DNA of 64,000 nt from an uncultured Actinomycetota bacterium (GTDB taxonomy: Bacteria; Actinomycetota; Actinomycetes; Actinomycetales; Demequinaceae). Below, one piece after another: positions 1-64,000 of this stretch. The stretch's first letter is position 1; every line of letters begins with the position of its first letter. Both the position numbers and the translations under genes were made by a program. Below the pieces are notes generated by a model, which ran no database searches, was not told where the DNA came from, and saw only the letters and a program-made list of their open reading frames with translations. The DNA is taken from contig CAVUPQ010000004.1 in the NCBI GenBank assembly GCA_963743485.1, forward strand, positions 279,292 through 343,291. Reading direction: 5' to 3'.

Positions 1-558
1 GATCACGTCGCCCGGCTCGACCCCGGCGTCCGCGGCGGGCGACCCGTCGTTGACCGACGCGATCGTCACGCCCCCGGCATCGGCGCTGATGGGACGCTCG
101 GGAATGGCTCCGAGGTACGGGTGCTCCTCGGGTCCCGGCCGCTCGGCCTGGGACTCGAGCTGCACGCGCAGGGACTGCTCGGAACCGTCGCGAGAGATGA
201 CGACGGCAACGGTGTCACCCGGCTCGACCCCGTCCATCGCCTCGCGCAACGAACCGCGATGATCGATCGCGACCCCGTGGATCGAGATCACCTGGTCCCG
301 GGCCTCGATGCCGGCCGTCGCGGCGGGTCCGTCGGCCGTGACCGCGACGACGATCGCGTGGTCGCGAAGGATCCTCAGCCGCCAGCCGAAGAACGGCACC
401 GTCGACGGATCGGGTCGCGAGACTTGGGTGCCCGCGCCCGGGGACGTGTCCGCCGCGGACGCCGCGGATGTTCCCGCGACGAGTCCCCCGACGGCGAGGG
501 CTGCTGTGAGGCCGACGGTCGTCGGCCATGCGGCGAGCCGCCTCTTCGTGTGTGCCAT
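1..558 (-). CDS. PDZ domain-containing secreted/membrane-anchored protein (N-terminal part; gene continues beyond window start)
   Basis: Runs off the window edge, so it is absent from the ORF track. Reverse-strand ATG at 556-558 with GGAGG 7 nt upstream (566-570). Translation starts MAHTKRRLAAWPTTVGLTAALAVGGLVAG (signal/TM anchor). PDZ-like stretches follow: GIEARDQVISIHGVAIDHRGSLREAMDGVEPGDTVAVVISRDG and GGVTIASVNDGSPAADAGVEPGDVI. Confidence 0.6.
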   Translation of the reverse strand, partial: MAHTKRRLAAWPTTVGLTAALAVGGLVAGTSAASAADTSPGAGTQVSRPDPSTVPFFGWRLRILRDHAIVVAVTADGPAATAGIEARDQVISIHGVAIDHRGSLREAMDGVEPGDTVAVVISRDGSEQSLRVQLESQAERPGPEEHPYLGAIPERPISADAGGVTIASVNDGSPAADAGVEPGDVI

Positions 559-596
559 GAGTGTGCCTCCTTGGTCGTGATCCAACACGACCCATA

Positions 597-2103
597 TCAG
601 CAAGCGCTCCTTGCGAGAGGCTGGGGTGCGCCTGGGAAATCGCTGAGACCTCTCGCTACGACGCGCCGATCACGGGGCCGAATCCGGCCTCTCCCGCGCG
701 AGCGTGCAAGCGTGTAGACGGGCTCGCCGTCGAACGCGTCGTGCGCCCGAATCGCGTCGGCGCCGTAGCCAGCGGGAAGCCGCGCGGCGCGATCGCCCGA
801 GCACAGCAGGAGACTCCCCGACCACGCGATCGACGCGGGCGTCGGCTCCGTCGACGGCAGGCGCCACGCCTCGTCGCCCACGATCGAGTACACGACGTTC
901 CCCACGGCAACGCGGGTGGCGTCCGGCTTGACGGAGAAGTACGGGTCGCTCGACGTCGTCGGGAAGATCGCGGCCCTCACGAACGTGCTGGTCCTCGGCG
1001 ACACCGTGTAGAGGGCGGTCGACCCGTCGGCGCGCGGGCACGCGTCGAGGAGTTGCCTCGACGGCGCCCAGCTCACGGGCCGGCACTGCACCGCCTCCGG
1101 CGGCGCGCCGAGGTCCATCCGGTCGGTGTCGGCGTCGCCCGTCGGAACCTGGGCGTAGGTCACCGTGTTCCAGTACTGCTCGACGTAGTCCTGCCACTCG
1201 AGCTGGTCGTCGAGCCAGCGCTGCAGGGTGACGCTCACGGTCTCGCCCGCGACATACCAGGTGCCCCCTGGATCCTCGATGAAGGAACTGGACGTCACCG
1301 GCGGAATCGCCTGCGCGATCGCCCGGCCATCGAGAGAGAGCCGAATCCACTGACGGACGTCCTCGCCGTCCGTCACGAGGATCGCGTCGCGGCTCGCCGC
1401 GAGCCGCACCTCGCCTCCCGTCCACACGGGCGACGTGTCCGGCACGAAGGTCGAGGGCGACGGCTGCGCGTCGGGACTCGCGCTCGGCTGCGCCACGTTT
1501 GGGGCGAAGGGGGGCGCCATGCCAGGGCCGTCGAAGGCTCCGGAGAGCGCGCCCGTGACGATGTCGAGCGTGGCGAGAACGACCCGATCGGATCCCACCC
1601 ACTCGGGCTGAGCCACGATCGCCTTGCGTCCTCCCGGGAGCCAGAGCCGAATGTCGAGATGGCGCGCCGGATCGAGCTCCGCGCCCTCGTACACGGTCCC
1701 GACCTGATCGACGACGTACACGCGACGCGTTCCCGGATGGTCCCAGGTGCTGGACCTGCGCCGACTGGCCAGCGGCCCCGGGGGTCGCGCTGGGGCCCAG
1801 GGCGCGTTCGGCGCTCGTCAGGTAGCGGCCGGAACTCGAATCGTAGGTCGTGAGAATCCACCCCGGCCCTACGGCCTGCAGGACGTCGGCGGTCAGCGGA
1901 AGCGCCGCGTCGGGCGCCGCGACCGGTTCGCCGGGACCGTCCGATGCCGTCGGGCTCGGGGAGGCGCTCGCGGTGACGGTCGCCACGGGCGCCGCGCCGG
2001 CACCCCTTCCCCACGACATGAGGACGGTCACGCCCGCGACGAAGGCGAGCGCGAGCGCGACGGTGAGGCCGCCCCACCACCGTGAACTGCGAATCTGCGC
2101 CAC
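597..2103 (-). pseudogene. membrane-anchored secreted protein of unknown function, frameshifted
   Basis: The N-terminus lies in ORF 670..2103: MAQIRSSRWWGGLTVALALAFVAGVTVLM (TM anchor), a Ser/Pro linker, then GPGWILTTYDSSSGRYL. The body continues in another frame (ORF 597..1721: YVVDQVGTVYEGAELDPARHLDIRLWLPGG...). There is at least one frame change near 1720-1760. The 3' end is uncertain and no family was recognised. Confidence 0.55.
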
Positions 2104-2178
2104 GACACCTCTCCCGTCGCCGGTGCGTCCCTGGTCCAGGCTAACCGGCGTCGCCTGGGAGCGAGAAGTTCCCGAACC

Positions 2179-3791
2179 TCAGGTCAGCGCCGCCTCGACG
2201 ACCTCGATGCCGACGGGGGGATCCGCGAGGCTCGCCCGGAGCGCGTCGACGTCCCCCACTCGCACGTGCGTCGCTCCGAATGCCCGGGAGATCGCCCCGA
2301 TGTCCGCGCCCTGCGGCGTCGTGAAGACCCGCGCGAACGCCGCGGGGTCGGCGTCGGAGTGCTCGAGCGAGCCGAAGATCGCGCCGCCGTCGTCGTTCAC
2401 GACGACGATGCGCAGGTCCGGCCGCCTCTCGAGGCTCCCCGTGAGGAGCCCTCCCGCGTCGTGGAGGAACGTCAGGTCGCCCGACGAGGGCGGTGCACGG
2501 GCGCGCCGAGGCCGAGCGCCACTCCGGCGGCCGTGGACAGCGTGCCGTCGATCCCCGCGAGCCCCCGATTCGCGACCACGACGCGCGGGTCGGCCCCCGT
2601 CCCCGCGGGAAGGACGGCGTCGAGCGCCCGGATGGCGCGACTCGAGCCGACGAAGAGAGGGCCGCTGCCCGACGCCTCCGCGACCGTCGATGCGATGGCC
2701 TCCACTCCCCACGGCTCAAGCGCCTGCTCGGGAGCGGCGTCGAGCCAGCGCGACAGCCAGGCGCGATCGTCCGTCGGAGGGGCACGCGAACCGGATCCAG
2801 TCGAAGGGGATGTCCTGGACCACGACCTCCGCGTGCACGGGCGCCTCCCTCCAGGGCCCGCCGTACCGCGCGACCCAGAGGATCGGCGCCCGATCCACGA
2901 GCGCCCTGACTCCTCGCGACAGGGTCGCGCGCCCAACCGCGAGCACGAACTCCGCCTCGGCGATGAGCGCCTCGCCCTCGGGCCCGGCCAGCAGCGCCGC
3001 GTAGCGGGGGACGCACACGTCGCCGATCCGGGCGCCCGACGTCGGCTCGGCGAGCAGCGGCCATCCGCGCGCGGCCGCGATCGTCGCGGCGGCGGGCCCG
3101 GCGCGATCGCCCGCGACGACGACGCCCCGCTCGACGAGGGGCAGGGGCGGGGCCGACGCCTCTGACGTCGAAGGTCGCCTCCGCGGGCGACGCGTCGGGC
3201 CACGGCCCGCGATCGGGACCGAGGGGATCAGCGAACTGGACGTTGAGGTGCACGGGGCCCGCCCCGAGCCCCGGCGACGAAGGACCGGCCCCCGCCCCGC
3301 GCGTCACGGCGCTCCCGACGACGACGGCCGCCTCGCGCTCGACGTCCCGCCCGGGACCCGGCGCCACGACGTCGAGGGCCAGCCGGACGAAGGGCGCGAA
3401 GATCGCGCGCTGGTCCGTGGTCTGGTTCGCGCCCGTCGCCCTCAGATCGAAGGGGCGATCGGCCGTGATCGCGATGAGGCGGACGCCCGCGTGGTGCGCC
3501 TCCATCACGGCGGGAAGGAGGTTGCCAGCGGCGGTTCCCGAGGTGGTGACGACGGCGGCCGCGCCGCGCGCGATGGCGAGCCCGAGAGCGAGGAAGCCCG
3601 CGGACCTCTCGTCGACGCGAACGTGGAGCCGAATGTCCGGGCGCGCCGGGGGTCGCCCCGCCCGCCGCCTCGGCGAGCGCGTGCGCGAGCGGGCCCGAGC
3701 GAGAGCCGGGGCACAACACGATGTCGCGAACGTCGTTCGCGGCGAGGTTCGCCACGAGCGCTCGCGCGAAGGCCATCGCGGGGTGCGGCAT
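2179..3791 (-). pseudogene. menD: 2-succinyl-5-enolpyruvyl-6-hydroxy-3-cyclohexene-1-carboxylate synthase (MenD), multiple frameshifts
   Basis: Recognisable MenD segments lie in different frames, giving at least 4 frame changes. N-terminus MPHPAMAFARALVANLAANDVRDIVLCPGSRSGPLAHALAEA is in ORF 3228..3791. The core MEAHHAGVRLIAITADRPFDLRATGANQTTDQRAIF is in 2141..3508. The middle GWPLLAEPTSGARIGD / VCVPRYAALLAGPEGE is in 2472..3203 and 2716..3018. The ThDP-motif C-terminus GDLTFLHDAGGLL...RIVVVNDDGGAIF is in 2179..2712. The gene is directly downstream of menC. Confidence 0.85.
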
Positions 3792-4684
3792 CAGACGGTC
3801 ACCTCCGAGCTCTCGGCGACCAGGATCCCGCCCCGCGGGACGAGCGGGCGCGACACGACGTCATCGACGAGCAGGGTTCCCGTTCCCAGTCCGCAGGCGT
3901 AGGGCAACTCGGGAAGCGCGAGCGCGAGCGCGAGGCCCGCGGCGAGCCCGACGGACGTCTCCATCGCGCTCGATACGACGACGGGGAGGCCGGCCTCCTC
4001 GGCGATCGCGAGGCACGCGCGGACCCCGCCGAGCGGCGCGACCTTGAGGACCAGGATGTCCGCCGCACCCGCGCGGGCCACGGCAAGCGGGTCCGTCGGG
4101 ACGCGAACCGACTCGTCGGCCGCGATCGGCACGTCGACGCGGCGCCGGACCTCGGCGAGATCGGCGACCGACGCGCACGGCTGCTCGACGTACTCCAGCC
4201 CGTCGAGCCCCGCCGCTCGCGCCGCGCTCTCGAGTTCTCGGATCGCCGCGACCGCCCGATCGACATCCCACGCGCCGTTCGCGTCGATCCGCACCCGCGC
4301 GTCGGCTCCCCCGAGGTCGCGCACCGCCCCGGCGGCGGCCTCGACCCTCGCTCGATCGTCGGCGAAGGAGGAGCCGCGGCCGCCCACCTTGACCTTCGCG
4401 ACGATGCATCCACCGGCGACGGCGAGGCGAGCGGCGTCGGCGGGGCCGACCTCCGGCACGATGCTGTTGACGCGAATCGAGCCGCGCACCGGCGCCGGCC
4501 ACTCGCCGCGCGCGGCCTCCATCGCCGCGGCCCACCACCGGGAGGCGCGCTCGCCGTCGTAGTCCGGAAACGGCGAGTACTCGCCCCAGGCGTCGGCCCC
4601 CGCCCCGCGAACGAGCACCCCGCTGCGTTCGGTCAGCCCGCGAAATCTCGTGGTGAGGCGGACGCGGAACGGGCGGAACTCCAT
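3791..4684 (-). CDS. menC: o-succinylbenzoate synthase (MenC, enolase superfamily)
   Basis: Single intact 297-aa ORF with enolase-superfamily/OSBS hallmarks: AKVKVGG, RIDANGAWD, LEYVEQP, PIAADES, LVLKVAPLGG. Its stop overlaps the menD start by 1 nt. Confidence 0.9.
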   Translation of the reverse strand: MEFRPFRVRLTTRFRGLTERSGVLVRGAGADAWGEYSPFPDYDGERASRWWAAAMEAARGEWPAPVRGSIRVNSIVPEVGPADAARLAVAGGCIVAKVKVGGRGSSFADDRARVEAAAGAVRDLGGADARVRIDANGAWDVDRAVAAIRELESAARAAGLDGLEYVEQPCASVADLAEVRRRVDVPIAADESVRVPTDPLAVARAGAADILVLKVAPLGGVRACLAIAEEAGLPVVVSSAMETSVGLAAGLALALALPELPYACGLGTGTLLVDDVVSRPLVPRGGILVAESSEVTV

Positions 4685-4712
4685 GGCGCCAGGCTACGGC
4701 CTGCCCGCCACC

Positions 4713-6033
4713 CTACGGATGCAGCAGGGCTCGGTAGCCCTCTGTGCCGACGACGTGCAAGGTCGGTGCGGCCTGGGACGGGTCCGTCTGGGAGGGTTCC
4801 GCGCCGTCGGGAGCCTGCCCGGGAAGCAACTCGATCGTCGTCGTCCGGTCGCGAGGTCGGTGAGCCAGAGGAGCCCGTCGCCGCTCACGAGCGCCGTGGT
4901 GCCCGAGGCGCCGAGGCAGTGGCGGAACGGGTGCCCCGTCACGCCGATCGGCACGAGCGAGCCGTCCTTGAGGACGCCGAGCCGGGACGGTCCCCACGTG
5001 ACCTCGACGACGCGCAGGGGGCTGTCGGCGCAGTACCCGGACACGAAGTAGTCCGAGGGGCCGGGAACGCCGAACGTCACCCTCAGTGCCTCCAGGTCGG
5101 CGGAGGGAATGACGTCGGTCGGGGCGGAGCCGTCCACCGGGAACTCCCACACGTCGAGGGCCCCCTTCTCCGTGTAGCAGTACGCGACGAAGGTCTCCCC
5201 GTAGCCCTTGCCGATCATGTAGCAGTCGTCGGTCGCCGACGACGGGATGACCGCCTCGGTTCCGTCGGGGTAGAAGGCCGTGAACCGCGACTCGGGCGGC
5301 GTCTCGAATTCGCTCTGTACCTGGACGTCGCCGACGTCGAAGACCGTGAAGCCGAAGCCCTTGCCGACGATCGACGCGTCGAGCTCGGCGCCGTCGTCCG
5401 TGTACAGCCCGTCGATTCCCTCGCCGTCGCACGAACCCCGCAGCAGCCACGCGCCGTCGCGCGCCGACCCGCGAACGTAGCCCTCGTTGTCGCAGAAGGA
5501 CCAGGTCGCGTCGAGTTCGCCCGTCACGAAGTTGACGACCTTCACGTTCGAGAGGTTGTCGACCAGCGAGCGCCTTGCTCCTGCCGCGTGTCCCACGCGA
5601 CGAGGTCCGGGGTCCCCATTCCGAGCGTGTCGAGGTTCGCCAGCTCGTAGCGGATGCCGTCGGGAGAGATGAGGTAGAGGACGCGCGGTCCAGGCGATTC
5701 GACGCCGGCGTCGTCGATGGCCGTCGCGTCGTAGATCGCGACGACCCACCCCGTCCCACCGACGCGAGCACGTCCTCCGTGAGGAGCTCGCGCGTCCGGC
5801 ACGTGGGGCGCGACCGTGACCTGCCGCTCGACGAAGGCCGGGGGCGGCGTGGGCGACGGGTTCGGCGAACTCGTGGACGAAGGGGTCGGGGACGGCGACG
5901 GGGCGACGGCCTCCCGGGCGAACGGCCCCCACCCGGCGAACCAGGCACCGGCGACGAGCGCCACGACGGCGGCGCCCGCGGCGAGAGCCGCGATCACCTT
6001 CCCGCCCAGCTTCGCCATGTCCCGCTCCTCCAT
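4713..6033 (-). pseudogene. membrane-anchored secreted protein of unknown function, frameshifted
   Basis: The N-terminus MEERDMAKLGGKVIAALAAGAAVVALVAG (TM) plus a Pro/Ser linker and GWVVAIYDAT...RVLYLISPDGIRYELANL lies in ORF 5542..6033. The body VKVVNFVTGELDATWSFCDNEGYVRG...YCYTEKGALDVWEFPVDG...LVSGDGLLWLTDLATG lies in the frame of 4694..6058. The likely C-terminus TTTIELLPGQAPDGAE...GYRALLHP lies in the frame of 4713..5948. At least 2 frame changes. Confidence 0.55.
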
Positions 6034-6089
6034 CGACCGAGCCCCGGCGCATCCTCACGTCGCACGCGGCGAAGGCTAGGCTCGTGGAC

Positions 6090-7022
6090 GTGAGCGACGT
6101 TCCCGCCCAGGTCTCCGACCTTCGATCCCGCGCAGTGGCGCGCCATCGACGGCTTCCCTGATGGTGACATCACCTACCACCGGTGGGTTGAGCGCGCAGG
6201 GCGCGACGGCGAGCGCGACCTTCCCGCGGTGCGCATCGCCTTCAACCGGCCCGAGGTGCGCAACGCCTTCCGGCCCCAGACCGTCGACGAGCTCTACCGG
6301 GCCCTCGACCACGCCCGCATGACCGCCGACGTCGCCGCCATCATCCTCACCGGCAACGGCCCGTCCGACGACGGCGTGCACGCGTTCTGCTCGGGCGGCG
6401 ACCAGCGCATCAGGGGCCGGGACGGCTACCTCTACGAGGGCGACGCCTCCGCGGCGCCCGCGCCACGGCGGGCGCCTCCACATCCTCGAGGTCCAGCGGC
6501 TCATGCGCACGTCCCCCAAGGTCATCATCGCCGCCGTCAACGGCTGGGCGGCGGGCGGGGGCCACAGCCTCCACGTCGTCGCCGACCTCTCGATCGCGAG
6601 CCGCGAGCACGCGCGCTTCAAGCAGACCGACGCCAACGTCGGCTCCTTCGACGCGGGCTACGGGAGCGCGCTGCTCGCGCGCCAGGTGGGCGACAAGCGC
6701 GCCCGCGAGATCTTCTTCCTGGCCCGCGAGTACTCGGCCGACGACGCCGAGCGCTGGGGCGCCGTCAACGAGGCCGTCGACCACGACCGAGCTGGAGGAC
6801 CGCGCGCTCGGAGTACGCGGCATCGTCGCGACCAAGTCGCCCCAGGCGATCCGCATGCTGAAGTTCGCCTTCAACCTCGCCGACGACGGCCTCGCGGGCC
6901 AGCAGGTGTTCGCGGGCGAGGCCACGCGCATGGCCTACATGACCGACGAGGCCCAGGAGGGGCGGGACGCGTTCCTCGAGCGGCGCGAACCCGACTGGAC
7001 GCGCTTCCCCTACGCGTTCTGA
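6090..7022 (+). pseudogene. menB: 1,4-dihydroxy-2-naphthoyl-CoA synthase (MenB), frameshifted
   Basis: The GTG at 6090 (VSDVPAQVSD) is out of frame with FDPAQWRAIDGFPDGDITYHRWVERAG...VRIAFNRPEVRNAFRPQTVDELYRALDHAR...FCSGGDQRIRG (ORF 6229..6861 frame). The sequence continues with KVIIAAVNGWAAGGGHSLHVVADLSIAS...FKQTDANVGSFDAGYGSALLARQVG (6503..7075 frame). It ends with SPQAIRMLKFAFNLADDG...REPDWTRFPYAF in a further frame. Crotonase-fold MenB signature; at least 3 frame changes. Confidence 0.88.
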
Positions 7023-7029
7023 GCCCGAA

Positions 7030-8167
7030 CTACCGGCCGGTCGTGATCACGTTGGAGTCGAAGCTCAGGACCTGAGACTCGCCCGTCCCCGACGCCGGCA
7101 GGAGCTCCACCCACGTGTTGCCCGGCACGAGGGACACGGGCGCGCCGCTCGATCGTCTCGAGGTGGAACGTGTCCCGAGCGATCCGCCTTCGACCACCGG
7201 ATCTCCGAGGTAGTTCCCGCCCGCCGCGACGTAGCCGGTGCCGTGATCGGTGCCGGCGAGCAGGGTCTCGGGGTCGTCGTGGAACTTGTATCGGACGCCC
7301 GCGCGGAGGACGACGATGTTCGTCGCCGAGATCTGTTGCCCGTCCTGCTGCATGTGGGCGTCGGAGCCCTGGAACCGGAGCCACCGCTGCCGACGCGGCG
7401 TCCCACGTCCAGTGTTGGGTCTGCGTGCGCGAGAACTTCAGGCTGATTTGCGCGACGGGCGTGCCACCGAGGTGATCGCGGTCGCCGTCGAGTCCGGGTA
7501 CGCGTAGGTGAACTGCTCCGGAGCGGGCGAGGCCCCTCGCGCGAGCCCGCACTTCGTCCGCCTCGTGCAGGTTGACGTAGGTCGAGTACGGGCGATGCTT
7601 GCCCTTGCGCTGATAGAACGCGGGCCGGCAGTTGAGCAGGTCCTCCGCGACGTAGATCTGGTCGGTCAGCTTGAGCGCGTCCTTGAGGGTCGGCGAAGCC
7701 GCGCCGGAGAAGACGAGCGTCCCGTAGAACGAGCCGAAGATGTACGGGTCCATGGGCCGCAAGGACCGGGTGTTGCCGACGACTTCCGGGTAGTTCGAGT
7801 GGAAGACCGCGACGAAGCGCGTCCAGCCGCCCTTCGCCATGTACTCCTCGAACACGATGTCCGCGTGCTGAAGGCCCGCCTGCGGGATCGCCTTGTTCGT
7901 GCCCGTGCTGTTGTCGATCTTGACGGCGATGCGCCTGGCGCTGAAGATCCGCCTCGGTGGCGTCCGTCGCGTCGAGGCCCGTGAGGGGCCACACGACGGC
8001 GGGCTTGGGGTCCGGCGGCGGCGTGGGCAACTGCGACCCTGTTCTCGAATGGGCACGAGGGTGTTCGTCACCGCTGGCGGCGTGACCACCACGGGCGCGC
8101 ACGCGGCGAGCGCCGCCACCGCAAGCACGGCAGACGCCGCGGCGAGGCGGCTGGCTGTGCGGGTCAT
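7030..8167 (-). pseudogene. DUF3048 domain-containing lipoprotein, frameshifted
   Basis: Starts MTRTASRLAAASAVLAVAALAAC (lipobox). It contains IAVKIDNSTGTNKAIPQAGLQHADIVFEEYMAKGGWTRFVAVFHS...RSLRPMDPYIF, which is typical of DUF3048 (frame of ORF 7010..8518). The C-terminal part QQDGQQISATNIVVLRAGVRYKFHDD...NVITTGR lies in ORF 7030..7353. Several frame changes. Confidence 0.7.
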
Positions 8168-8200
8168 AGCGGACAGTCTAGGCACCCCTAGGCTGGGACG

Positions 8201-10463: not shown

Positions 10464-10497
10464 AGCGCAACTCTATCGCGCGCGCTACGCTCGATCC

Positions 10498-11921: not shown

Positions 11922-11925
11922 CCGC

Positions 11926-12816: not shown

Positions 12817-12825
12817 GCGCCCTCC

Positions 12826-16344: not shown

Positions 16345-16377
16345 GGCCCTAGTCTCCCAAACCCGCGGGCCGCGCGC

Positions 16378-49782: not shown

Positions 49783-49844
49783 GGCACGTCGCGTGCCGCG
49801 GCGCCCTGCAGAGGCGGCACCCCTCGCGGGGCGCCTGTGCCGAC

Positions 49845-51190: not shown

Positions 51191-51196
51191 GGCGAC

Positions 51197-53851: not shown

Positions 53852-53928
53852 TGCAGCGGGCGCCAACGGCGCGGCGCCTAGAATGAAGACCGCCACGATC
53901 GACGTGCACGAGGGGGCTCAGGGCCACG

Positions 53929-54882: not shown

Positions 54883-56147
54883 CGGGCGCCAAACCAGAGG
54901 CGAGCGGCGCGCGGCGCCTGCTGGTCGCCACCGTCGTGTCGGGCGGATTGGGCTACCTCACGCTGGCGTTCGCCACACACCAGCTCTCGGCCGGGAGCTA
55001 CGCCGCCTTCGCAACGTTCTGGTCCGGGCTGTACCTTGTCGTCGGGAGCGTCAATGGCGTTCAGCAGGAGGTGTCTCGCTCCTCCACGTCCGCGCTCAGG
55101 ACCCCCGTCGAACGGGGGCCGCACACCGCGCTGCGACTCTTCCTCGCCGTCGCCGTCGCGCTCGCGGCTCTAGGCGTGATCGGGGCGCCGTGGGCACACG
55201 ACCTCTTCGGTTCCCACACGTCGGTGAAGATGGTGGTGCTCGTCGCCGGAGCCGTCGCATACTCGGCCCTCGCCGTGTCCGTCGGCCTCCTTTATGCGGC
55301 CGAGTCGTGGCGACTCGTCGCGTGGGCGATCATCGCCGACGGGGCGCTCCGCATCGCTCTCGTGGGCGCCGCCCTGGCCCTCGGCCTCTCGGACATCCTC
55401 GTCGCCCTGTGCGTGGTTGCGCCCTTCCTGATTGTCCATCTCGTCGTCCTTCAGCGACGGGGATGGACCCTGTGGGGCGAAGCCGTCTTCGACGCCCACG
55501 GTTCCCGACTCCTGCGCAACACCGCGAGCGCCGTCCTTGCCGGTGCGGGGATCGCAGCGCTCGTCAGCGGGCTCCCCCTCATACTGGCGTGGGGCATTCC
55601 CGAGGTGGACGACGCGGTCTTGGCGCCGATCATCGTCGCGATTACGCTCGTGCGCGCCCCCCTGGTGATTCCGACCCTCGCCCTCCAGGGCTTCCTCGTG
55701 GTTCGCTACGTGAACCTGGGACGACGGGCGAGCGCCGACGCGACGCGCACCATCGCGGTCGTCGCCGTCGCCGTCGCCCTCGCGACCGTAGGCGCCGCGA
55801 CCGTTGGCGCAGGCCTCGTCGCGTCGGTGTTCGGCGCGGACTATCAGATCGATGCCGGACTACTCGCGTGGATTGTCGCCAGCTCGGGCGCCGTCGCCAC
55901 GCTCACGATCACGGGTGCGCTCGCCCTCGCGCGATCACTCCACCGAACGTACTCCGCGGGCTGGCTCGTGGCGGCGGCTAGTACTGTCGTCCTTGTGATG
56001 ACCCGTGTCGAGTTCCACCACAGGGTCGTGCTCGCCCTCGCCGTGCCGCCGACGATCGGCGTCGCCGTTCACGTCGCTGGCCTGGTCGCGGCGCGTCGCG
56101 CCGAGGATCGGGCGGGGTTTGGTCGCCCGACGCGGGAGCGATCGTGA
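54879..56147 (+). CDS. polysaccharide biosynthesis/flippase-like polytopic protein (Wzx/MOP-superfamily-like by topology)
   Basis: The GTG at 54879 overlaps the upstream stop (GTGA) and is in frame in ORF 54711..56147. About 420 aa, hydrophobic throughout (12 or more TM by eye). Assignment rests on topology and context only. Confidence 0.6.
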   Translation: MTGAKPEASGARRLLVATVVSGGLGYLTLAFATHQLSAGSYAAFATFWSGLYLVVGSVNGVQQEVSRSSTSALRTPVERGPHTALRLFLAVAVALAALGVIGAPWAHDLFGSHTSVKMVVLVAGAVAYSALAVSVGLLYAAESWRLVAWAIIADGALRIALVGAALALGLSDILVALCVVAPFLIVHLVVLQRRGWTLWGEAVFDAHGSRLLRNTASAVLAGAGIAALVSGLPLILAWGIPEVDDAVLAPIIVAITLVRAPLVIPTLALQGFLVVRYVNLGRRASADATRTIAVVAVAVALATVGAATVGAGLVASVFGADYQIDAGLLAWIVASSGAVATLTITGALALARSLHRTYSAGWLVAAASTVVLVMTRVEFHHRVVLALAVPPTIGVAVHVAGLVAARRAEDRAGFGRPTRERS

Positions 56148-57058
56148 AGGTCCTCGTCACCGGAGCAGCAGGAATGCTGGGGGGCGCCATCGCGAGGCAC
56201 CTCGCGACCATTCACGGAGACGACGCCGTCGTGCGGCCCCGGGCCGCGGAGCTGGACCTGCGCGACGGGGAGCGCGTGCGTGCCTTCGTCGACGACAACC
56301 CGGTCGACGCCGTGGTCCACGCCGCGGCGAAGGTGGGGGGCATTCAAGACCGGATCGACCACCCCACGTCCTACCTCCTCGAGAATCTTCAGATCGACAC
56401 GAGCCTGCTGGCAGCATGTGTCGACGCGGGAATCCCGAACGTCTTGTACATCAGCTCTGCAGCGATCTACCCTGCCGCGGCGAGCCAGCCCATTGGCGAG
56501 TCGGCCCTCCTCACCGGGACGCTCGAGGGGCCCCTTGAGTCGTACGCCATCGCGAAGATCGCCGGGACGCGCTTCTGCCAATACGCCTCGGAAGAGTTTG
56601 GCCTCAACTATCGCGTCGCCGTGCCGTCGAACATGTACGGCCCCGGCGAACACCTCGAGCCCGGCCGATCCCACCTCGCCGCCTCGGCGCTCCTCAAGTG
56701 CCACGCTGCGAAGACCGCCGGCGAAACGTCCGTCGAGGTGTGGGGCGACGGAACCGCACGCAGGGAGCTGACGTACGTCGATGACGTTTCCGCCTGGCTC
56801 GCGAGCCAGCTCACCAACCTCGACGGGTGGCCGGCGCTGGTGAATGTCGGCAGGGGCTCGGACAACACGGTGAGGGAGATCTACGAGCAGGCGGCGATCA
56901 CGACGGGGTTCGACGGGGACCTCGTCTTCGACGCGACGAAGCCCGTTGGCGTCGCCCAACGCCTCCTCGACTCGGCCCGGGCACAGTCCCTGGGGTGGAG
57001 TCCGACGACCGACCTGGCTGATGGCATGGCGCGCGCCTACGCGGCCATGTACCCCTGA
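56144..57058 (+). CDS. fcl: GDP-L-fucose synthase (GDP-4-keto-6-deoxy-D-mannose 3,5-epimerase/4-reductase)
   Basis: Intact 304-aa ORF collinear with Fcl/WcaG as I recall it: VLVTGAAGMLGGAI, AAAKVGGI, SSAAIYP, LESYAIAKIAG, VPSNMYGP, VWGDGTARRELTYVDD, DATKPVGVAQRLLD. gmd lies nearby. Confidence 0.8.
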   Translation: MKVLVTGAAGMLGGAIARHLATIHGDDAVVRPRAAELDLRDGERVRAFVDDNPVDAVVHAAAKVGGIQDRIDHPTSYLLENLQIDTSLLAACVDAGIPNVLYISSAAIYPAAASQPIGESALLTGTLEGPLESYAIAKIAGTRFCQYASEEFGLNYRVAVPSNMYGPGEHLEPGRSHLAASALLKCHAAKTAGETSVEVWGDGTARRELTYVDDVSAWLASQLTNLDGWPALVNVGRGSDNTVREIYEQAAITTGFDGDLVFDATKPVGVAQRLLDSARAQSLGWSPTTDLADGMARAYAAMYP

Positions 57059-57115
57059 GTCGATCGGGACGCTCGGGCCAAGCGACGGTCGACGGGCCTC
57101 GGCCGGCCCCCGCGG

Positions 57116-58213
57116 CTAGGCGAGGCCCCTCGCCTTGTCGAAGACGGCAAGCGTCTCGCGGGCGGTCCTCTCCCAGGTGAAGAGCTTGGTCTGCACGAGG
57201 CCCTTGGCTGACAGGGACGCGAGCCACTCGGGCTCGGCCATCGCCCGCTCGAGAGTCGCGGCGATCGAGGCCGGATCCTTGGGGTCGAAGTACCCAGCGG
57301 CGTCGCCCGCGATCTCGCGGAACTCCGAGATGTCAGACATCAGGACCGGCAACCCCAGGTACATGGCCTCAAGCGCGGGAAGGCTCGTGCCGTCGTGGAG
57401 CCCGGGAATTACGAGCGCCGTCGCGTGTTCCAGAAGCCACGCAACCTCGTCGTCCGGAACCCACGACCGGAGGTCTACCCACTCCTGAAGCCCAAGGTCG
57501 GCGATGATCGGCGCGAGCGGATCGGGTCCGCGCGCTCCCGTGATCACGACCTTCGGGCGCCGACTCTCATCGATATGGACGAGCGAGCGCACGAGCCCGG
57601 CCCAGTTCTTGTGTCCGATCCTCTGACCCATGGCGAGGAAGAGCGCCTGCTCCCGGTCCTTCGTCGCGACGCGACGCGCCGTCGGCGGCGTCCCCGCAAG
57701 GCTGACGACGTCAATGCGTTCAGCGGGAAACTTGAGGTACGTCACGATGTCCTCGAGCGACGCCTGACTGTCCGTGATGATCCGCGCGGCGTTGCGAGAC
57801 GCGACCTTCTCCATCCACTGGACGGGCTTGTTGTACATCGGCGTGACCATCAACTCCGGCAGAGCGAAATAGAGGAGGTCGTGCATCGTGTACACCGCCG
57901 GCATCGCGGTCTTGCGGGGCCCGAGCGTGAGCGGGCAGTGAAGCAGATCCGCGCCAACCCTCGCCGCGGCGGGGCCGGCGCGGAAGAGTTCTCCCCACGC
58001 CCAGATGAAGCGATTCTCACCCGTGATTCCGCTGTTGATGACCTCGCCCGGGAACCACGGCGCTCCCATGGCGGCAAGCTCCTTGCTCGCCCACGCGACG
58101 AAGGTGTGACCCGTGTCAAGGGCGCCGATCGAGGCGTAGAGCTCGCGGACATACTTCTCCATGCCGCCTTTGAGTCCCGTGTAGGAAAGCAGATCAACGA
58201 AGATCTTTGCCAA
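57116..58213 (-). CDS. glycosyltransferase family 4 (GT-B)
   Basis: The TTG at 58213 is preceded by GGAGGAG and lies inside ORF 57116..58573: LAKIFVDLLSYTGLKGGMEKYVRELY. C-terminal GT-B motif: IPGLHDGTSLPALEAMYLGLPVLMSDISEFREIAGDAA. Confidence 0.8.
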   Translation of the reverse strand: MAKIFVDLLSYTGLKGGMEKYVRELYASIGALDTGHTFVAWASKELAAMGAPWFPGEVINSGITGENRFIWAWGELFRAGPAAARVGADLLHCPLTLGPRKTAMPAVYTMHDLLYFALPELMVTPMYNKPVQWMEKVASRNAARIITDSQASLEDIVTYLKFPAERIDVVSLAGTPPTARRVATKDREQALFLAMGQRIGHKNWAGLVRSLVHIDESRRPKVVITGARGPDPLAPIIADLGLQEWVDLRSWVPDDEVAWLLEHATALVIPGLHDGTSLPALEAMYLGLPVLMSDISEFREIAGDAAGYFDPKDPASIAATLERAMAEPEWLASLSAKGLVQTKLFTWERTARETLAVFDKARGLA

Positions 58214-58724
58214 GGGGTGCTCCTCCGTGCGTCGGCCAAGCAACGGTTGTCTGCGGTCCTCGGCGGTGGCGGGCGCGTGCTCTCGAATTCTGGACCATGC
58301 TACCGTCCGCGCGAGGGGCCGACCGCTCCCTGGGGAGTCCGCGGCGCCGGCCCGCAACGTCGCCGAACCCTTGGGGCACGGGCACGTCACTGCCCGGGCG
58401 TCTCCTCCACGATGCGCAGAAGCTCGCGGAGACCCGGGGACCTCGACGGGGCGAAAGCCGGCGGGCAGGTAGGGAGCCGCGTCGATCGTCGGGTTGCATG
58501 TCGCGACGAACGCGTAGTCGCTTGCTTGGTTCTCCGTCCAGAAGTCCGCCGGTCCTGCGTCCCTGAACATCACCCCGGCCCGGTCGATCCCTTGGTCCGA
58601 CTCCCCGGACCCCGCGACCCACGGGCGGCTGGGAGGATGCGGCGCCCGCCGCTCGCCGTGAGCCTCGTGCTCTCCCGCTAGAGTGGCGCAGTACGATTTT
58701 TCGGCGAGTCTCGGAGGCGTTCAG

Positions 58725-59750
58725 ATGTCCACGAAAGACGGCAAACGGGCCCTGATCACCGGCATCACCGGCCAGGATGGAAGTTACCTCGCGGAGCTGC
58801 TCTTGTCGAAGGGCTACGAGGTTCACGGATTCATTCGCCGCGCGTCGACCTTCAACACGTCCCGCATCGACCACATCTACCAAGTGCCGCACACCGCGCA
58901 TCAGCGCCTCTTCCTGCACTACGCCGATCTCGCCGAAGGCTCGCGCCTCGCGCCGCTTCTACGGGAGGTCAACCCGCACGAGGTGTACAACCTCGCGGCG
59001 CAGTCTCACGTGCGCGTGAGCTTCGACGAGCCCGAATACACCGGCGATGTCACGGGCCTCGGGACAACGAGGTTGCTCGAGGCCATCCGCAACACCGAGC
59101 TGGACTGCCGGTTCTACCAGGCGTCGAGCTCGGAGATGTTCGGCGCCACACCCCCACCGCAGAATGAGGAGACGCCCCTCCACCCGCGCTCGCCGTACGG
59201 GGTCGCGAAGGTCTACTCGTACTGGATCACACGAAACTACCGCGAGGCCTACGACCTGTTTGCGGTGAACGGGATCCTCTTCAATCACGAGTCGCCCCGT
59301 CGCGGCGGAACCTTCGTCACGCGCAAGATCACGCGCGCCGTCGCGCGCATCGCCGCCGGCGAGCAGAAGGACCTGTGGCTTGGCAACCTCGACGCGGTGA
59401 GGGACTGGGGATACGCCCCGGAGTACGTCGAGGCGATGTGGCGCATGCTCCAGCACGACGCGCCCGAGGACTATGTCGTCGCAACCGGCACGGCATACAC
59501 GGTCAAGGATTTCGTGCGATTCGCGTTCGAGCGCGTGGGTCTCGACTGGGAGAAGCACGTCAAGTTCGACGAGCGCTACTTGCGGCCCTCGGAGGTCGAT
59601 GCCCTGATCGGCGACGCCTCGAAGGCCGAACGCGTCCTCGGCTGGAAGGCCAAGGTCCACACACCGCGCCTCGCGGAGATCATGGTCGATGCGGACATCG
59701 CCGAACTCGAGGTCGCGGGCAAGCCGTACGTCGATACCGTCGAGCAGTAG
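58725..59750 (+). CDS. gmd: GDP-mannose 4,6-dehydratase
   Basis: ATG at 58725 with GGAGG at 58713-58717, inside ORF 58683..59750. [42 protein letters not shown]. Intact. Confidence 0.93.
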
Positions 59751-59790
59751 TCGCCCGACGCTCCTGGGTTCCGGTAGTCTTTTCAGGCAA

Positions 59791-59895
59791 CGACAGGGGA
59801 GCGCCTCCGTTCAGATTGAACGGGCCAGGGCGCTGAGAGTGCGGACAGCCGCAGACCCTCGAACCTGATCCGGCTAGCACCGGCGTAGGGAGTCG
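59791..59895 (+). promoter_or_regulatory. TPP (THI-box) riboswitch
   Basis: P1 CGAC...GUCG encloses GGGGAGCGCC...GGCGCUGAGAG...ACCCUCGAACCUGAUCCGGCUAGCACCGGCGUAGGGA, which matches the conserved THI element core (CUGAGA, ACCUGAUC.GG..A..CC.GCGUAGGGA). It is followed by a hairpin CCUCC(59906-59910)/GGAGG(59917-59921) that can sequester the SD of the ATG at 59929. Confidence 0.85.
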
Positions 59896-59928
59896 AGACT
59901 CGTCCCCTCCTTACGAGGAGGATTCACC

Positions 59929-60983
59929 ATGCGCATGACACGAGCAACGTCATCACCACCGCCGCGCTCGCGGCGGCCCTCGCCGCCACGTCCCTCGCGG
60001 GCTGCTCGGCAGCGGCCGATGACCCGCACGCCGTCACCGTCGTCACCCACGACAGCTTCGCCGTGCCCGACGACGTCCTTGCCGCCTTCGAAAGGTCGAG
60101 CGGCCTCACGGTCACCTTCGTCGCGCCGGGCGACGCCGGGACGCTCGTCAACCAGCTCATCCTCACCAAGGACGCGCCGCTCGGCGACGTCGTGTACGGC
60201 ATCGACAACACGTTCGCCTCCCGCGCGATCGACGAGGGCATCTTCGCCGACTACGCGAGCGCGGCCCCCGCCGCCGCCGACGCGGCCGGCTACGCGATAC
60301 CCGGGAGCGACGCGCTCACGGCGATCGACTACTCCGACGTGTGCATCAACGTTGACCACCGCTACTTCGCCTCGCGCGGACTCGCCGAGCCGGTGACGCT
60401 CGACGACCTCACCAATCCCGCGTACCGGGGCCTCCTGAGCGTCACGAATCCCGCGACGTCGTCCCCCGGCCTCGCGTTCCTCCTCGCCACGGTCGCCGCG
60501 TACGGCGACGCGCTGGCCCGACTACTGGGCGAGGCTGCGCGACAACGACGTTCGCGTCGACGCGTCGTGGACGGACGCCTACTACTCGGACTTCTCCGGG
60601 CCCTCGTCGGGCGGCGCGTACCCGCTCGTCCTCAGCTACGCGTCGTCGCCGCCGTACGAGGTGGGCGACGACGGCGTCGCTCCCACGGGCGCGCTGCTCG
60701 ACACGTGCTTCCGCCAGGTGGAGTACGCGGGCGTGCTCGCGGGCGCGAAGAACCCCGACGGCGGCGGCAAGCAGTCATCGACTGGATGCTCTCGGACGCG
60801 TTCCAGGCGGCGCTCCCCGAGAACATGTACGTCTACCCCGTCTCGGCCTCGGTTGCGGTGCCGCCCGACGTGGGCCGACGCACGCACCGCTCAGCCCCCA
60901 CCCCTACACCCTCGACCCCGCGACCATCGCCGAGAACCGGGACGACGTACATCCGCACGTGGACGTCCGTCGTGATCGGCTAG
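59929..60983 (+). pseudogene. ABC transporter substrate-binding lipoprotein (thiamine/TPP-type, inferred from riboswitch), frameshifted
   Basis: ATG at 59929. The signal/lipobox ITTAALAAALAATSLAGCS is already in a different frame. The main body is in ORF 60063..60983 (VTVVTHDSFAVPDDVLAAFERSSGLTVTFV...[22 protein letters not shown]). Later parts ([18 protein letters not shown]...[14 protein letters not shown]; [22 protein letters not shown]) are in other frames. Confidence 0.75.
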
Positions 60984-60995
60984 CGCGGACCGCTC

Positions 60996-62646
60996 GTGCG
61001 GCGTCACCCCAGCGACGCTCCCCGCGCCCCGCGCGGCGCGGTGGGCCCTGCTCGCGGTCCCGCTCGCATTCCTCGGCCTGGTGTTCGTGTGGCCGACGGT
61101 CGCGCTCCTGTGGCGCGGCCTCGCCGGGTCGGGCGAGGCATGGTGCTCGGGGACGGCACGGACGTGGCGCGCCGTGGGCGACGACGCTCGGGCTCGCGTC
61201 GGGCGGAACGGCGCTCGCCGTCGCGCTCGGGCATTCCGGCCGCGTGGGCGCTGTTCCGGCTGCGGTGGCGCGGGCCAGGCCGTGGCGCGCGCGGCCGTCA
61301 GCGTGCCGTTCGTCCTCCCGACCGTCGTGGTCGCGACGGCGTTCTCTGCGCTCTTCGGCCCGGCCGGGCTCCTGGGCTTCCTCGGCGCGGACCAGTCGCC
61401 CGCGGCCATCGTCGCCGCGCTGGCCTTCTTCAACGTCGCGATCGTGGCGCGCGTGGTCGGGGGAACCTGGGCGGGCCTCGATCCCCGCGCGACGCGTCGC
61501 CGCCCGCACGCTCGGCGCGAGCCCGCGGCAGGCCTTCGCCCGCGTCACCGCTCCCCTCGCTCGTGCCCGTCGATCGCCGCCGCGGCGTCGATCGTCTTCC
61601 TGTTCTGCGCGTCGTCGTTCGCGATCGTGCTCGTGCTCGGCGGGACGCGAGTCAACTCCGTCGAGACGGAAATCTGGATCCAGGTCAACCAGTTCCTCGA
61701 CCTGCGGGCCGCGTCGCTCCTCGCGCTGCTCCAGGTGGCGATCGTCGCGCTCGCGCTCGGCGCCGCGGAGTGGGCGCGGGCTCGCACGCGAGCGCAGTCG
61801 GCACCGGAGGGCGTCGACGGCACCCGGCCGCGGCGCGGAGCGGCCGACGCCCCGCGCATCGCGGCCGCGCTCGCGGGGCCCGCGCTCCTGCTCGGGCTCC
61901 CCATGGCGGGACTCGTCGAGCGCTCGCTGCGCACCCGCGACGGCTGGGGCCTCGACCACTACGCCGCGCTCGCTCGGCCAGCCCGCGCGCGGCATCCTGC
62001 CCGGTGCCGCTGTGGCGCGCGGCCGCTCAACTCGCTCGAGGCCGCGACCTGGGGCGCGGCGATCGCCATGGTCGCCGGCCTCGCGCTCGCGTACGCGCTC
62101 GCACGGTCGCGCCGCGTCCGTGGGCGGGCGCCTGGCGATGCTGCCCCTCGGCGTCTCGGCGGTGATCGTCGGCCTCGGCGTACTCCTGACGCTCGCCCGA
62201 GCCCCTGCCGTGGGGCTGGGCACGCCGCGAGCCCGGCCCTCCTCATCCCGCTCGCCCAGGCCGTCGTCGCGTTTCCCCTCGTGGTGCAGAAGCCTGGTGC
62301 CCGCGCTCACCGCGATCCCGCCCGACGTGCGCGCCTCCGCCGCGATCCTCGGGCGCGTCGCCGTGGCGGCTGTGGCGCGCCGTCGAGTGGCCGCTCGTCC
62401 GACGCCCCGTCGGCCTCGCGCTCGGCCTCGCCTTCGCGGTGTCGCTCGGCGAGTTCGGCGCGACGAACTTCCTCGCGCGGCCCGACCATCCCACGCTCCC
62501 GACCGCGATCTTCCGCTTCCTCGGCCGGCCCGGCGTCGACAACGTCGGCGTCGCGTTCGCCGCGTCGGTCGTGCTCGCGGCGATGACGGGGGCTGTCATG
62601 ATGGCGGCGGAACGACTGCGCGACCCGGACGGACGGGGAACTGTGA
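60996..62646 (+). pseudogene. ABC transporter permease, two-domain (ThiP-like), multiple frameshifts
   Basis: GTG at 60996. [71 protein letters not shown] and [28 protein letters not shown] are in ORF 61081..62586. Second-half segments ([25 protein letters not shown]; [15 protein letters not shown]; [24 protein letters not shown]) are in other frames. Confidence 0.75.
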
Positions 62647-63304
62647 ACGGGCTCGAGCTGCGCGACGTCTCGGTGACCTACCCTGGGCCGCCCGCCGGTG
62701 CGCGCCGTCCGCGACGTGTCGCTCGCCGTCCGGCCGGGCGAGATCGTCGCGCTCGACCGGCCCGTCGGGCTGCGGGAAGTCCTCGCTCCTCGGCGCGATC
62801 GCCGGCAGTCGTCGAGTGCACCGGCATGGTGGCGTGGGACGGGGAGGACGTCACGCAGGTCCCCGTGCACCGGCGCGGATTCGGGCTCGTGTTCCAGGAC
62901 GGCGCGCTGTTCCCGCATCGGACCGTCGCGGGCAACGTCGGCTTCGGGCTCGAGATGGCCTCGCGTGCCCCGCGCCGAACGCGACGGCGCGGGTCGAGGA
63001 GCTGCTGGAACTCGTTCGGCTGCCCGGGTTCGGCGACCGGCGCGTCGACGAACTCTCGGGCGGCGAGCGCCAACGGGTCGCGCTCGCGCGCTCGCTCGCC
63101 CCGCGGCCCGCGGCTCCTGCTTCTGGACGAGCCGCTCAGCTCGCTCGACCCGGAACTACGCGAGCGCTCGCCTGCGGACGTGCGCGACATCCTTCTCGCG
63201 ACGGGCACCACGGCAATCGTCGTCACCCATGATCGCGCGGAGGCCGCCGCCCTGGGGGACAGGACCGTCGCCATGCGCGACGGCGACTCATCGCACGGCG
63301 CTAG
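62643..63304 (+). pseudogene. ABC transporter ATP-binding protein (ThiQ-like), frameshifted
   Basis: The GTG at 62643 overlaps a TGA (GTGA). [10 protein letters not shown] and [23 protein letters not shown] lie in ORF 62439..63398. [15 protein letters not shown] lies in the frame of 60959..63232. [11 protein letters not shown] and [10 protein letters not shown] lie in 62439..63398. The stop TAG at 63302-63304 is read in another frame. Confidence 0.75.
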
Positions 63305-63423
63305 TCCCTGCACACCGGCGCCGGATCGAGGGTGGATCGGCACGGCGGTCGCCACCGCGCGAGTCTCGATTCACCGCGCACCGTTCATCTCCCCGTAGGC
63401 TGGGTCTGACGATAAGGACGGCC

Positions 63424-64000
63424 GTGGACCCTTCCCCCGCGACCTGGAATCCCGACCCGGATCCAGCCGGGGCAGGAACGTACTGGGCCCCGCCGCCCGA
63501 GGTGGGCCACGTGGACGCAGCCGGCCCCTCCGTCGCCCCCGAGCCGCCGCACCCCGCCGCCGCGCCCGCCGTGGCCGACGCGGCACCCTGGGACCCTGGG
63601 GCCTCGGTTCCGCCGACGCCGCGGTCGCTCCGGCGCCAGGAGCGCTCGGGGCTTCCGGTTCGGGACACGGTCTGGAGTCCCCGTACGCGCCCATCGCCCA
63701 CGCTCCACCAAGAAAGCCGGGCGTCATGGCCCGTTGGCCTGACGCTTGGCATCACCGCCGCGATCCTGCTCACGGCCATCGTCGGCGTCGCGGTGTACAA
63801 GGCGGTTCTCACGAGGCCGAGCCGCACCACGTCGGTCGAGGATGTCGTCGCGCCTCGCGGCTGGGAGGTTCACACGTCCCGCACGGGCGCCGTCGCGTTC
63901 GCGTACGACCCTGCCTGGGTCGAACGCCGAGACCGCGACAACCGGGCAGGAGTACGTCGACGCCTTGGGCGCGCACCTGAGGTATGCGCTCGAGTACGCC
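63424..64000 (+). pseudogene. Pro-rich, single-TM membrane-anchored protein of unknown function (partial; apparent frameshift near 63925)
   Basis: GTG at 63424 with AAGGA 6 nt upstream. VDPSPATWNPDPDPAGAGTYWAPPPEV... is a Pro-rich cytoplasmic head, followed by the TM segment WPVGLTLGITAAILLTAIVGVAVY. The last 70 nt read more sensibly in another frame (...QEYVDALGAHLRYALEYA). Runs off the window. Confidence 0.4.

Follow-up and report, generated by a model that had tools for sequence, protein, structure and literature searches.

Heterogeneous consensus quality as the probable source of alternating broken and intact gene blocks in a Demequinaceae metagenome-assembled contig

In the 64,000-nucleotide stretch of an uncultured Demequinaceae genome that was analysed here (hereafter the window), groups of adjacent genes disrupted by numerous frame changes alternate with groups of genes that are perfectly intact. 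The first-pass annotation, which described this mosaic, proposed two explanations, namely real, module-wise pseudogenisation and heterogeneous consensus quality, with unpolished segments or a patchwork assembly. The question raised by this locus is whether the organism itself carries the broken genes.

Distribution of frame changes along the window

The G+C content is ~70% across the window (composition count), so long spurious open reading frames (ORFs) are frequent; an open frame of 773 aa that spans the broken gene of the GH94 family in the ORF listing is one such spurious ORF. The census of frames therefore relied on two other methods, namely Viterbi segmentation on codon usage and a frameshift-aware protein-to-DNA dynamic-programming aligner, by which frame changes were counted with orthologues from related contigs (L001-L003, L074, L075 and L078) as queries. 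Reference ORFs taken from stop to stop gave shadow-frame and read-through artefacts, which were filtered by codon-position G+C. Reference-free sorting of the Viterbi junctions by nearby stop codons proved too noisy, because it produced false positives where gene ends overlap in the clean blocks and fused events that lie close together; it was replaced by homology alignment. Events at alignment ends (4673, 24263, 59948 and 60951) were left out of the count; the event at 1743 is detected by Viterbi segmentation only, 2509 being the first with homology support.

Both methods recover the alternating blocks of the first-pass annotation. Frameshift-aware alignment yields ~120 frame changes in the window, every one of which falls within ~2.5-11.4, 17.5-24.0 (plus one near 25.8), 27.0-30.0, 36.7-39.3 or 60.5-63.1+ kb. 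Alignment, Pfam searches and contig matches reveal none in 11.4-17.5, 30.0-36.7 and 39.3-60.5 kb, and the blocks initially called intact are indeed free of a comparable indel density. At the pooled rate of ~2.1 events per kb, a uniform model gives a probability of ~1e-19 to 2e-19 for zero events in 20.4 kb, which bears out the incompatibility of a 20-kb intact block with a uniform indel rate, and of ~1e-6 for each of the two other clean blocks (~6 kb). Among the error-rich genes, the rate varies ~sixfold, from 1.5 to 8.7 events per kb.

The first error-rich stretch (1743..11423; stretches carry no strand unless one is given) contains ~29 frame changes (Viterbi plus homology), of which 26 are insertions, in a region that encompasses a hypothetical gene, menD, a second hypothetical gene (4719-6173), menB, a third (7033-8323), menE, menA and a GT4 glycosyltransferase gene. 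By homology alignment, menD has 4 frame changes, in agreement with the earlier minimum of four, and the genes from 4719-6173 to GT4 have 7, 3, 8, 4, 1 and 3, respectively; menC and two small ORFs are unaffected inside this stretch. The following clean stretch (11424..17502; 0 frame changes in alignment to L001 orthologues over >1,900 residues) comprises the 5′ part of GT4, ccsB, resB, ccdA, a tlpA-like gene, a histidine phosphatase gene and hemL. The claim that this whole block is intact holds for ccsB, resB, ccdA/tlpA and the phosphatase gene (0 over 1,543 aligned residues) but not for the last codons of hemL, where homology alignment places a single event (17503). This event opens the second error-rich stretch (17503..24019; ~23 frame changes, essentially all insertions), which includes the hemL 3′ end and the genes for TrkH (13 events), TrkA (at least 1), an SDR protein (1), CFA synthase (3), DUF1365 (1-2) and an amine oxidase (2). 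The sub-block at 24.3-26.6 kb is quiet apart from an isolated event near 25795 in a MerR/B12-binding gene.

The third error-rich stretch (27029..29977) affects the DUF4349 gene (26616-27604), with at least 4 frame changes by Viterbi segmentation and a full-length Pfam match that crosses the junctions, and the GH94 cellobiose phosphorylase gene, which was noted to be broken many times and has 21. It is followed by a clean stretch (29978..36673) that is covered by matches to contigs L073 and L071 and shows 0 events in alignment to L074 orthologues; it contains genes for a methyltransferase, dCTP deaminase (DCD), a 635-aa protein, a 564-aa protein and GtrA, and extends ~310 nt into the gene for UDP-glucose dehydrogenase; homology alignment gives 0 frame changes in DCD, a 560-aa protein and GtrA. 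On the plus strand, the fourth error-rich stretch (36674..39318; insertions except for one event) hits three adjacent genes, each several times as originally described: UDP-glucose dehydrogenase (9), GT2 (at least 4) and an epimerase (7). The longest clean stretch (39319..60515; 0 frame changes by Pfam, contig L155 and alignment to L078 orthologues) harbours a cell-wall polysaccharide cluster of ~17 genes, which are single ORFs with full-length Pfam matches, a TPP riboswitch and the first ~590 nt of a solute-binding-protein gene. The fifth error-rich stretch, also on the plus strand (60516..63357, its 3′ end lying at least there), covers a thiamine-type ABC transporter operon with almost exclusively insertions (solute-binding protein 5, permease ~15, ATPase at least 7, by homology alignment).

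At nucleotide resolution the edges do not coincide with operon boundaries, as had been proposed, but lie within the UDP-glucose dehydrogenase, GT4, solute-binding-protein and hemL genes: the first event of the fourth stretch (36674) is ~310 nt inside its gene, and GT4 and the solute-binding-protein gene are event-free for their first ~500 and ~590 nt, respectively. G+C content was rejected as the basis of the blocks: the first clean stretch (0.71-0.74) is as GC-rich as the first error-rich one, and the fourth error-rich stretch (0.67) is as GC-poor as the longest clean one.

Spectrum and context of the lesions

Approximately 113 of the ~120 homology-supported events (~94%) are insertions of +1 or +2 and ~7 are deletions, an insertion to deletion ratio of ~16:1. 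Natural small indels, by comparison, are generally driven by slippage and biased towards deletions. Against ~120 frameshifts stands a single candidate in-frame stop codon (27811, within GH94), so the impression that conserved segments contain no nonsense codon has to be amended. Larger deletions and insertion sequences are absent, and the frameshift sites of the window are absent from the aligned orthologues in L001-L003, L074 and L075.

Among 42 cleanly placed inserted bases, only 9 extend a homopolymer and 33 stand alone, compared to ~50% extension expected under random insertion, and homopolymer slippage, whether biological or technical, was rejected on this count. The inserted bases have a genome-like composition (C16, G13, T7, A6) and occupy all three codon slots (8/18/13; not significantly non-uniform). 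The GCGCG-type context reported for a few disruptions is not general among the placed insertions. Tandem retention of both strain alleles at third codon positions ('SNP doubling') was considered but not supported, as 8 of 39 insertions fall in the slot separating the first from the second codon position and the slot distribution does not depart significantly from uniformity. Programmed frameshifting or insertional-deletional editing is contradicted by up to 21 sites per gene in diverse flanking contexts, none of which dominates. The residual errors usually reported for polished Nanopore assemblies are mostly homopolymer deletions, a profile from which the near-pure, homopolymer-avoiding insertion spectrum differs.

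The GH94 gene carries 20 insertions and one deletion, 21 frameshifts in 2.4 kb, in addition to the candidate in-frame stop. When the frame is corrected, 807 of 807 residues align without codon gaps, with 90% identity to the best homologue. Across 311 alignment columns that show no variation among 117 homologues, the corrected protein has 0 private changes, the homologues themselves having 0-2. No intact GH94 of the same species is among the best 120 matches listed; GH94 and all three genes of the fourth error-rich stretch are intact in the JGI relative L074.

Independent contigs and related genomes

An independent assembly of the public run ERR11594398 is represented by the Logan contigs L071, L073 and L155. 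Together they align to 13.0 kb of the clean blocks, and this alignment includes 2 mismatches but 0 gaps: L073 equals 30094-31429 (100%), L071 equals 31405-36514 (1 mismatch, no gaps) and L155 equals 47497-54097, which is 6.6 kb of the longest clean stretch (1 mismatch, 0 gaps). L071 continues for 536 nt into the fourth error-rich stretch, where it has none of the bases inserted in the window at 36674, 36720 and 36780 and retains an open ORF of 230 aa; these three are the events, out of ~120, that were checked directly against DNA of the same population, and the same bases are also missing from L074. In this tail, 23 substitutions, mostly at third codon positions, separate L071 from the window, so L071 represents a slightly different strain here. 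The two sequences diverge increasingly from 36514, with 15 differences of synonymous type in 36832-37012, so that the sole inspected boundary (36.5-36.8 kb) falls where synonymous differences from an independently assembled strain begin. Exact Logan matches, among the contigs found, are limited to clean blocks. Independent coverage is patchy, because the exact products of four genes from clean or broken blocks are missing from the Logan contigs. The exact products of the resB, ccsB and Gmd genes and of those for the 571-aa, 402-aa, 206-aa and 109-aa proteins are on none of the contigs retrieved.

The gene calls of the deposited 411,770-bp contig (NCBI/ENA) include a truncated 314-aa product from 22947-23891, so the frameshifts are present in the deposited record. 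A Nanopore-only Microflora Danica metagenome-assembled genome (MAG), L003, has clusters of its own, with 5 deletions inside hemL, spaced over less than 500 nt, and ~12 events in trkH; in the window and in L001 and L002, these genes are either intact or affected in another way. The closest relatives of the window are Nanopore-only MFD MAGs produced with Flye and Medaka, and the respective catalogue/pipeline paper describes Nanopore-associated errors in MAGs of lower coverage (PMC12313526).

Origin of the error-rich stretches

The broken and intact blocks very probably reflect heterogeneous consensus quality in the deposited MAG contig, the genes being intact in the organism. We prefer this reading of the sequence because the spectrum is dominated by insertions, conserved sites lack extra substitutions, the frame is restored at the three testable sites, the edges lie inside genes and sister MAGs have clusters elsewhere. 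Of the two original explanations, heterogeneous consensus quality or patchwork assembly thus stands, whereas module-wise pseudogenisation fails on each of these points.

Real block-wise pseudogenisation, in which some operons would be inactivated by frameshifts and neighbouring operons would remain under selection, could account for the existence of frameshifts in the deposited sequence and for the involvement of entire operons (menaquinone, trkHA, thiamine transporter, three sugar-nucleotide genes); the operon-level look, with adjacent genes disrupted and their neighbours intact, resembles the reductive decay of Mycobacterium leprae and other recently host-restricted bacteria. In true decay, nonsense mutations, deletions, insertion sequences and raised non-synonymous change occur together. 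The window, unlike decaying genomes, combines one stop and ~120 frameshifts with full-length genes that are devoid of larger deletions and insertion sequences, and the 21 indels of GH94 are accompanied by no change at invariant residues, where a 1:1 ratio of substitutions to indels would predict ~6. Insertions strongly outnumber deletions with no preference for homopolymers, essential-pathway genes are struck at up to 8.7 events per kb, the edges are intragenic, and a contig from the same population (L071) has the intact frame at the three testable sites. Pseudogenisation is accordingly very unlikely. Still less credible is that the insertions are real and belong to a living or recently dead sub-population with kb-scale tracts of non-templated insertions, too recent for substitutions to have accrued; error-prone repair or a gap-filling polymerase acting on long patches could be an example of their source. 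Corruption after assembly and independent of read support (faulty polishing, formatting or merging, or deliberate perturbation) would fit near-pure insertions of genome-like composition in roughly even codon slots, with no accompanying substitutions at conserved sites. However, the public contig already has truncated products among its gene calls, so any corruption would be older than deposition; the event rate varies ~sixfold among error-rich genes, the inserted bases avoid homopolymers beyond what a random generator would produce, and the related MAG L003 has comparable clusters of a different spectrum, all of which makes this origin improbable. A further subtype of artefact, a chimeric or patchwork contig whose clean blocks derive from the abundant Logan strain and whose error-rich blocks derive from a less abundant, divergent strain or species with very few supporting reads, is suggested by the end of L071 identity at 36514, with third-position differences growing where insertions begin, and by the restriction of exact Logan matches to clean blocks. 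These observations concern a single examined boundary, and the frame-corrected genes are as similar to their orthologues in L001-L003 and L074 as the clean genes are, with no evident foreign origin; the clean-block products of ccsB, Gmd and the 206-aa phosphatase gene are, moreover, missing in exact form from the Logan contigs. A chimera is therefore a possibility that we entertain tentatively.

If heterogeneous consensus quality is the explanation, five stretches of ~3-10 kb would have acquired spurious single-base insertions roughly every 120-300 nt but hardly any deletions or substitutions, and the consensus between them would be essentially perfect. The source was probably a long-read assembly, because the closest relatives are Nanopore-only Flye and Medaka MAGs. 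The most likely cause of the patches is read support, the effective level of which may change stepwise at the scale of read length in such an assembly. Support might be weakened by low local depth or, alternatively, by divergent co-occurring strains that leave few reads of the assembled strain behind the consensus, and insertions in these few reads would then persist through consensus and polishing. The coincidence of the 36.5-36.8 kb boundary with synonymous divergence favours the version in which support would be partitioned by strain.

Indel errors in long-read consensus sequences (Nanopore or PacBio, low-coverage or unpolished) split ORFs and are usually detected by IDEEL-type tests of ORF length or by low coding density. 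The window resembles such cases in its 1-nt frame changes in conserved genes, which disappear in the independent assembly, and in that sister long-read MAGs are affected at other loci. Unlike the usual errors, mostly deletions that alter homopolymer length, its lesions are nearly exclusively insertions that avoid homopolymers and are confined to kb-scale patches, the rest of the contig being essentially free of errors. As in a strain-collapsed or chimeric consensus, the inspected boundary marks the start of synonymous divergence from a co-occurring strain, but strain mixing alone would be expected to produce mosaic SNPs rather than hundreds of single-base insertions. The near insertion-only, homopolymer-avoiding signature and the sharp edges may help identify the responsible consensus or polishing step.

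The deposited MAG contig contains kb-scale patches with ~0.3-0.9% spurious insertions, by which at least 25 genes are fragmented; the resulting truncated or shadow ORFs have already entered public protein collections. Although the contig is accurate for the most part, pseudogene counts, coding density, protein clusters and pathway calls derived from such MAGs would be locally wrong, the calls at risk here being those for menaquinone, potassium uptake, thiamine transport and cellobiose phosphorylase. In the organism, the genes are almost certainly intact, and the block pattern is therefore without biological significance.

Distribution of the frame changes

Codon-usage Viterbi segmentation of the window, with six coding frames and a non-coding state, returned many same-strand frame switches at 0.7-11.9, 18.2-30.0, 36.4-39.3 and 59.9-63.3 kb, and outside these four regions each gene was a single frame. 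Individual frame changes (events) were located with a frameshift-aware protein-to-DNA aligner, for which the references were orthologues from related contigs: L001-L003 (Microflora Danica MAGs) and others for 2-24.5 kb, 117 full-length homologues for the GH94 gene, a JGI contig (L074), syntenic there, from GH94 through the block v genes, and three further contigs (L075, L078, L082) for the thiamine-type ABC transporter. The aligner positions lie within 7 nt of three insertions seen directly in the DNA, and Pfam matches on frame-stitched translations bridge the junctions in block v, in DUF4349 and in the solute-binding protein.

Approximately 120 homology-supported events fall in ~24 kb of aligned coding sequence of the error-rich stretches and none in ~33 kb of the clean ones, which bears out the alternation of broken (i, iii, v, vii) and intact (ii, iv, vi) blocks described in the first-pass annotation. 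In block i, there are 4 events in menD, 7 in the hypothetical gene 4719-6173, 3 in menB, 8 in the hypothetical gene 7033-8323, 4 in menE, 1 in menA and 3 in the GT4 gene. Block iii holds 13 in trkH, at least 1 in trkA, 1 in the SDR gene, 3 in the CFA synthase gene, 1-2 in DUF1365, an isolated one near 25795 in the MerR/B12-binding gene, 2 in the amine oxidase and 21 in GH94; block v, 9 in UDP-glucose dehydrogenase, at least 4 in the GT2 gene and 7 in the epimerase; and block vii, 5 in the solute-binding protein, ~15 in the permease and at least 7 in the ATPase. Homology alignment detected no events in ccsB, resB, ccdA/tlpA and the phosphatase of block ii, where hemL has one in its final codons, or in DCD, the 560-aa protein and GtrA of block iv; 15 genes of block vi are each a single ORF with a full-length domain match. 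At the pooled rate of ~2.1 events per kb, the chance of none in a 20.4-kb block is ~2e-19, and therefore the block pattern is real and far exceeds chance.

ORF length alone is uninformative here because, at the ~70% G+C of the window, non-coding frames hold long open frames. A 773-aa ATG-initiated ORF (27725-30046, minus strand) is open over the entire GH94 gene, of which the true frame shifts 21 times; its exact product is absent among the deposited gene calls.

Single-base insertions and block edges

The homology-supported events comprise ~103 single-base insertions, ~10 two-base insertions (alternatively, pairs of neighbouring single insertions) and ~7 apparent deletions, some of which might be double insertions; there is one in-frame stop, at 27811. 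Nucleotide alignment to the L074 orthologues (83-88% identical) placed 42 insertions cleanly (16 C, 13 G, 7 T and 6 A), spread over all three codon slots (8/18/13), with 33 isolated, flanked by two unlike bases. Nearly all of the lesions are random insertions of one base. Homopolymer slippage is ruled out, given that just 9 of the 42 extend a run, and the GCGCG context previously noted is no general property of this cleanly placed set. An effect of G+C, tested against window composition, was rejected, and 'SNP doubling' found no support in the codon-slot distribution.

The block edges had been equated with operon edges, a correspondence that does not hold because they fall inside genes: block v sets in ~310 nt into its first gene, the 5' 500 nt of the GT4 gene and the first 590 nt of the solute-binding-protein gene are event-free, and hemL is hit at its final codons only. 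A complete TPP riboswitch (59785-59908, plus strand; Rfam RF00059, 64.7 bits, model positions 1-105 of 105) lies intact in the clean part, immediately 5' of the operon for solute-binding protein, permease and ATPase, which it marks as a predicted thiamine-type ABC importer.

Gene integrity and independent sequence

Real, module-wise pseudogenisation was one of the two explanations offered in the first-pass annotation. If the 21 indels of GH94 were genuine, many substitutions would be due as well, even a 1:1 ratio predicting ~6 at invariant columns. The frame-corrected protein aligns over 807 of 807 residues, with no codon gaps and 90% identity to its best homologue, and shows private changes at 0 of 311 invariant columns in the alignment with the 117 homologues, which themselves have 0-2; its nearest relatives among the matches listed are Demequina-type proteins. 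The frame-corrected broken genes are 0.74-0.90 identical to L001-L003 and L074, not lower than the clean genes (0.63-0.93). The affected genes show no evolutionary decay, and with edges inside genes and the frame restored independently at the three testable sites, pseudogenisation fails its defining tests. Programmed recoding and insertional-deletional editing were likewise rejected on the tests that define them.

Independent sequence comes from three Logan contigs of public run ERR11594398 that encode exact products of window genes. L073 agrees 100% with 30094-31429, L155 matches 47497-54097 with 1 mismatch and no gap, and L071, covering 31405-37050, has 1 mismatch as far as 36514 and is divergent beyond; against clean sequence this amounts to 13.0 kb with 2 mismatches and no indels. 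L073 and L071 share 25 nt at 31405-31429 and are otherwise contiguous, which suggests a branch point (variant or repeat) in the assembly graph of that run, inside an otherwise identical stretch. The only comparable error-rich DNA is 536 nt of L071 (36515-37050), where 23 substitutions separate the two sequences and the window has three additional bases (36674 G, 36720 G, 36780 C). These insertions are absent from L071, in which the UDP-glucose dehydrogenase frame is open to the contig end, and from L074, in which GH94 and all three block v genes are intact. Thus, independent sequence restores the frame where this is testable.

Because 18 of the 23 substitutions are at third codon positions and they are clustered in 36832-37012, L071 appears to be a slightly different strain in this tail. 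That stretch (36832-37012, L071:39-219) contains 15 differences in its 180 nt, 14 of them at third codon positions, with the window base G or C nearly throughout; 5.1 kb of identity adjoins. Judging from sequence comparison, these differences would indicate co-occurring strains or a recombination breakpoint at the clean/error-rich boundary.

A large gene cluster for cell-wall polysaccharide or exopolysaccharide spans 30.2-59.8 kb and encodes several GT2/GT4 glycosyltransferases, an ABC-2 exporter pair, GtrA, DUF2304, Gmd, four NAD-dependent epimerases/dehydratases and a number of large membrane proteins that lack annotation. With a G+C of 0.63-0.69, the cluster lies below its flanks, and it is partially syntenic with L074 (Ga0395911_000282).

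Origin of the error-rich stretches

The best matches of the window are uncultured Actinomycetota, and the resB neighbourhood shows 74-78% protein identity to the three Microflora Danica MAGs. All-against-all frameshift alignment among the related contigs found L001 and L002 mostly clean. L003, a Nanopore-only Flye+Medaka MAG (PMC12313526), carries clusters at L003:5235-7592 and L003:19309-20375, with five deletions in a 500-nt stretch of hemL (backed by three independent references), ~12 mixed events in trkH and several frameshifts in the menC/menD region; the neighbouring genes are clean, and the window's own hemL is intact. The patchiness of L003 resembles that of the window, although its spectrum is richer in deletions. 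For MAGs of lower coverage, the authors of the catalogue themselves note errors associated with Nanopore sequencing (PMC12313526). A technical cause would account for frameshift patches that affect different genes in the MAGs of related species.

In the protein collection, the window's intact ORFs are represented as gene products of one NCBI/ENA contig of 411,770 bp. The lesions belong to the deposited record and are no later addition, since the gene calls on that contig already include a truncated 314-aa product from 22947-23891.

The insertion spectrum, the undecayed genes, the independently open frame and edges that ignore genes all favour the other explanation in the first-pass annotation, heterogeneous consensus quality. 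The block pattern is almost certainly an artefact of sequence quality in a public MAG rather than a biological feature. The patches would be stretches where the consensus rests on very few or conflicting reads; their sizes (3-10 kb) and those of the clean runs (6-21 kb) are comparable to long-read lengths. At the one boundary that could be inspected, strain divergence and insertions begin at the same point, which suggests that reads of co-occurring strains, identical in the clean stretches, may pool there, and that reads of a rarer strain alone may apply in the error-rich ones. An insertion-only residue could arise if the consensus step keeps any base present in one of ~2 reads and fills deletions. 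The artefact is of use as a caution in annotation and as a signature for diagnosis.
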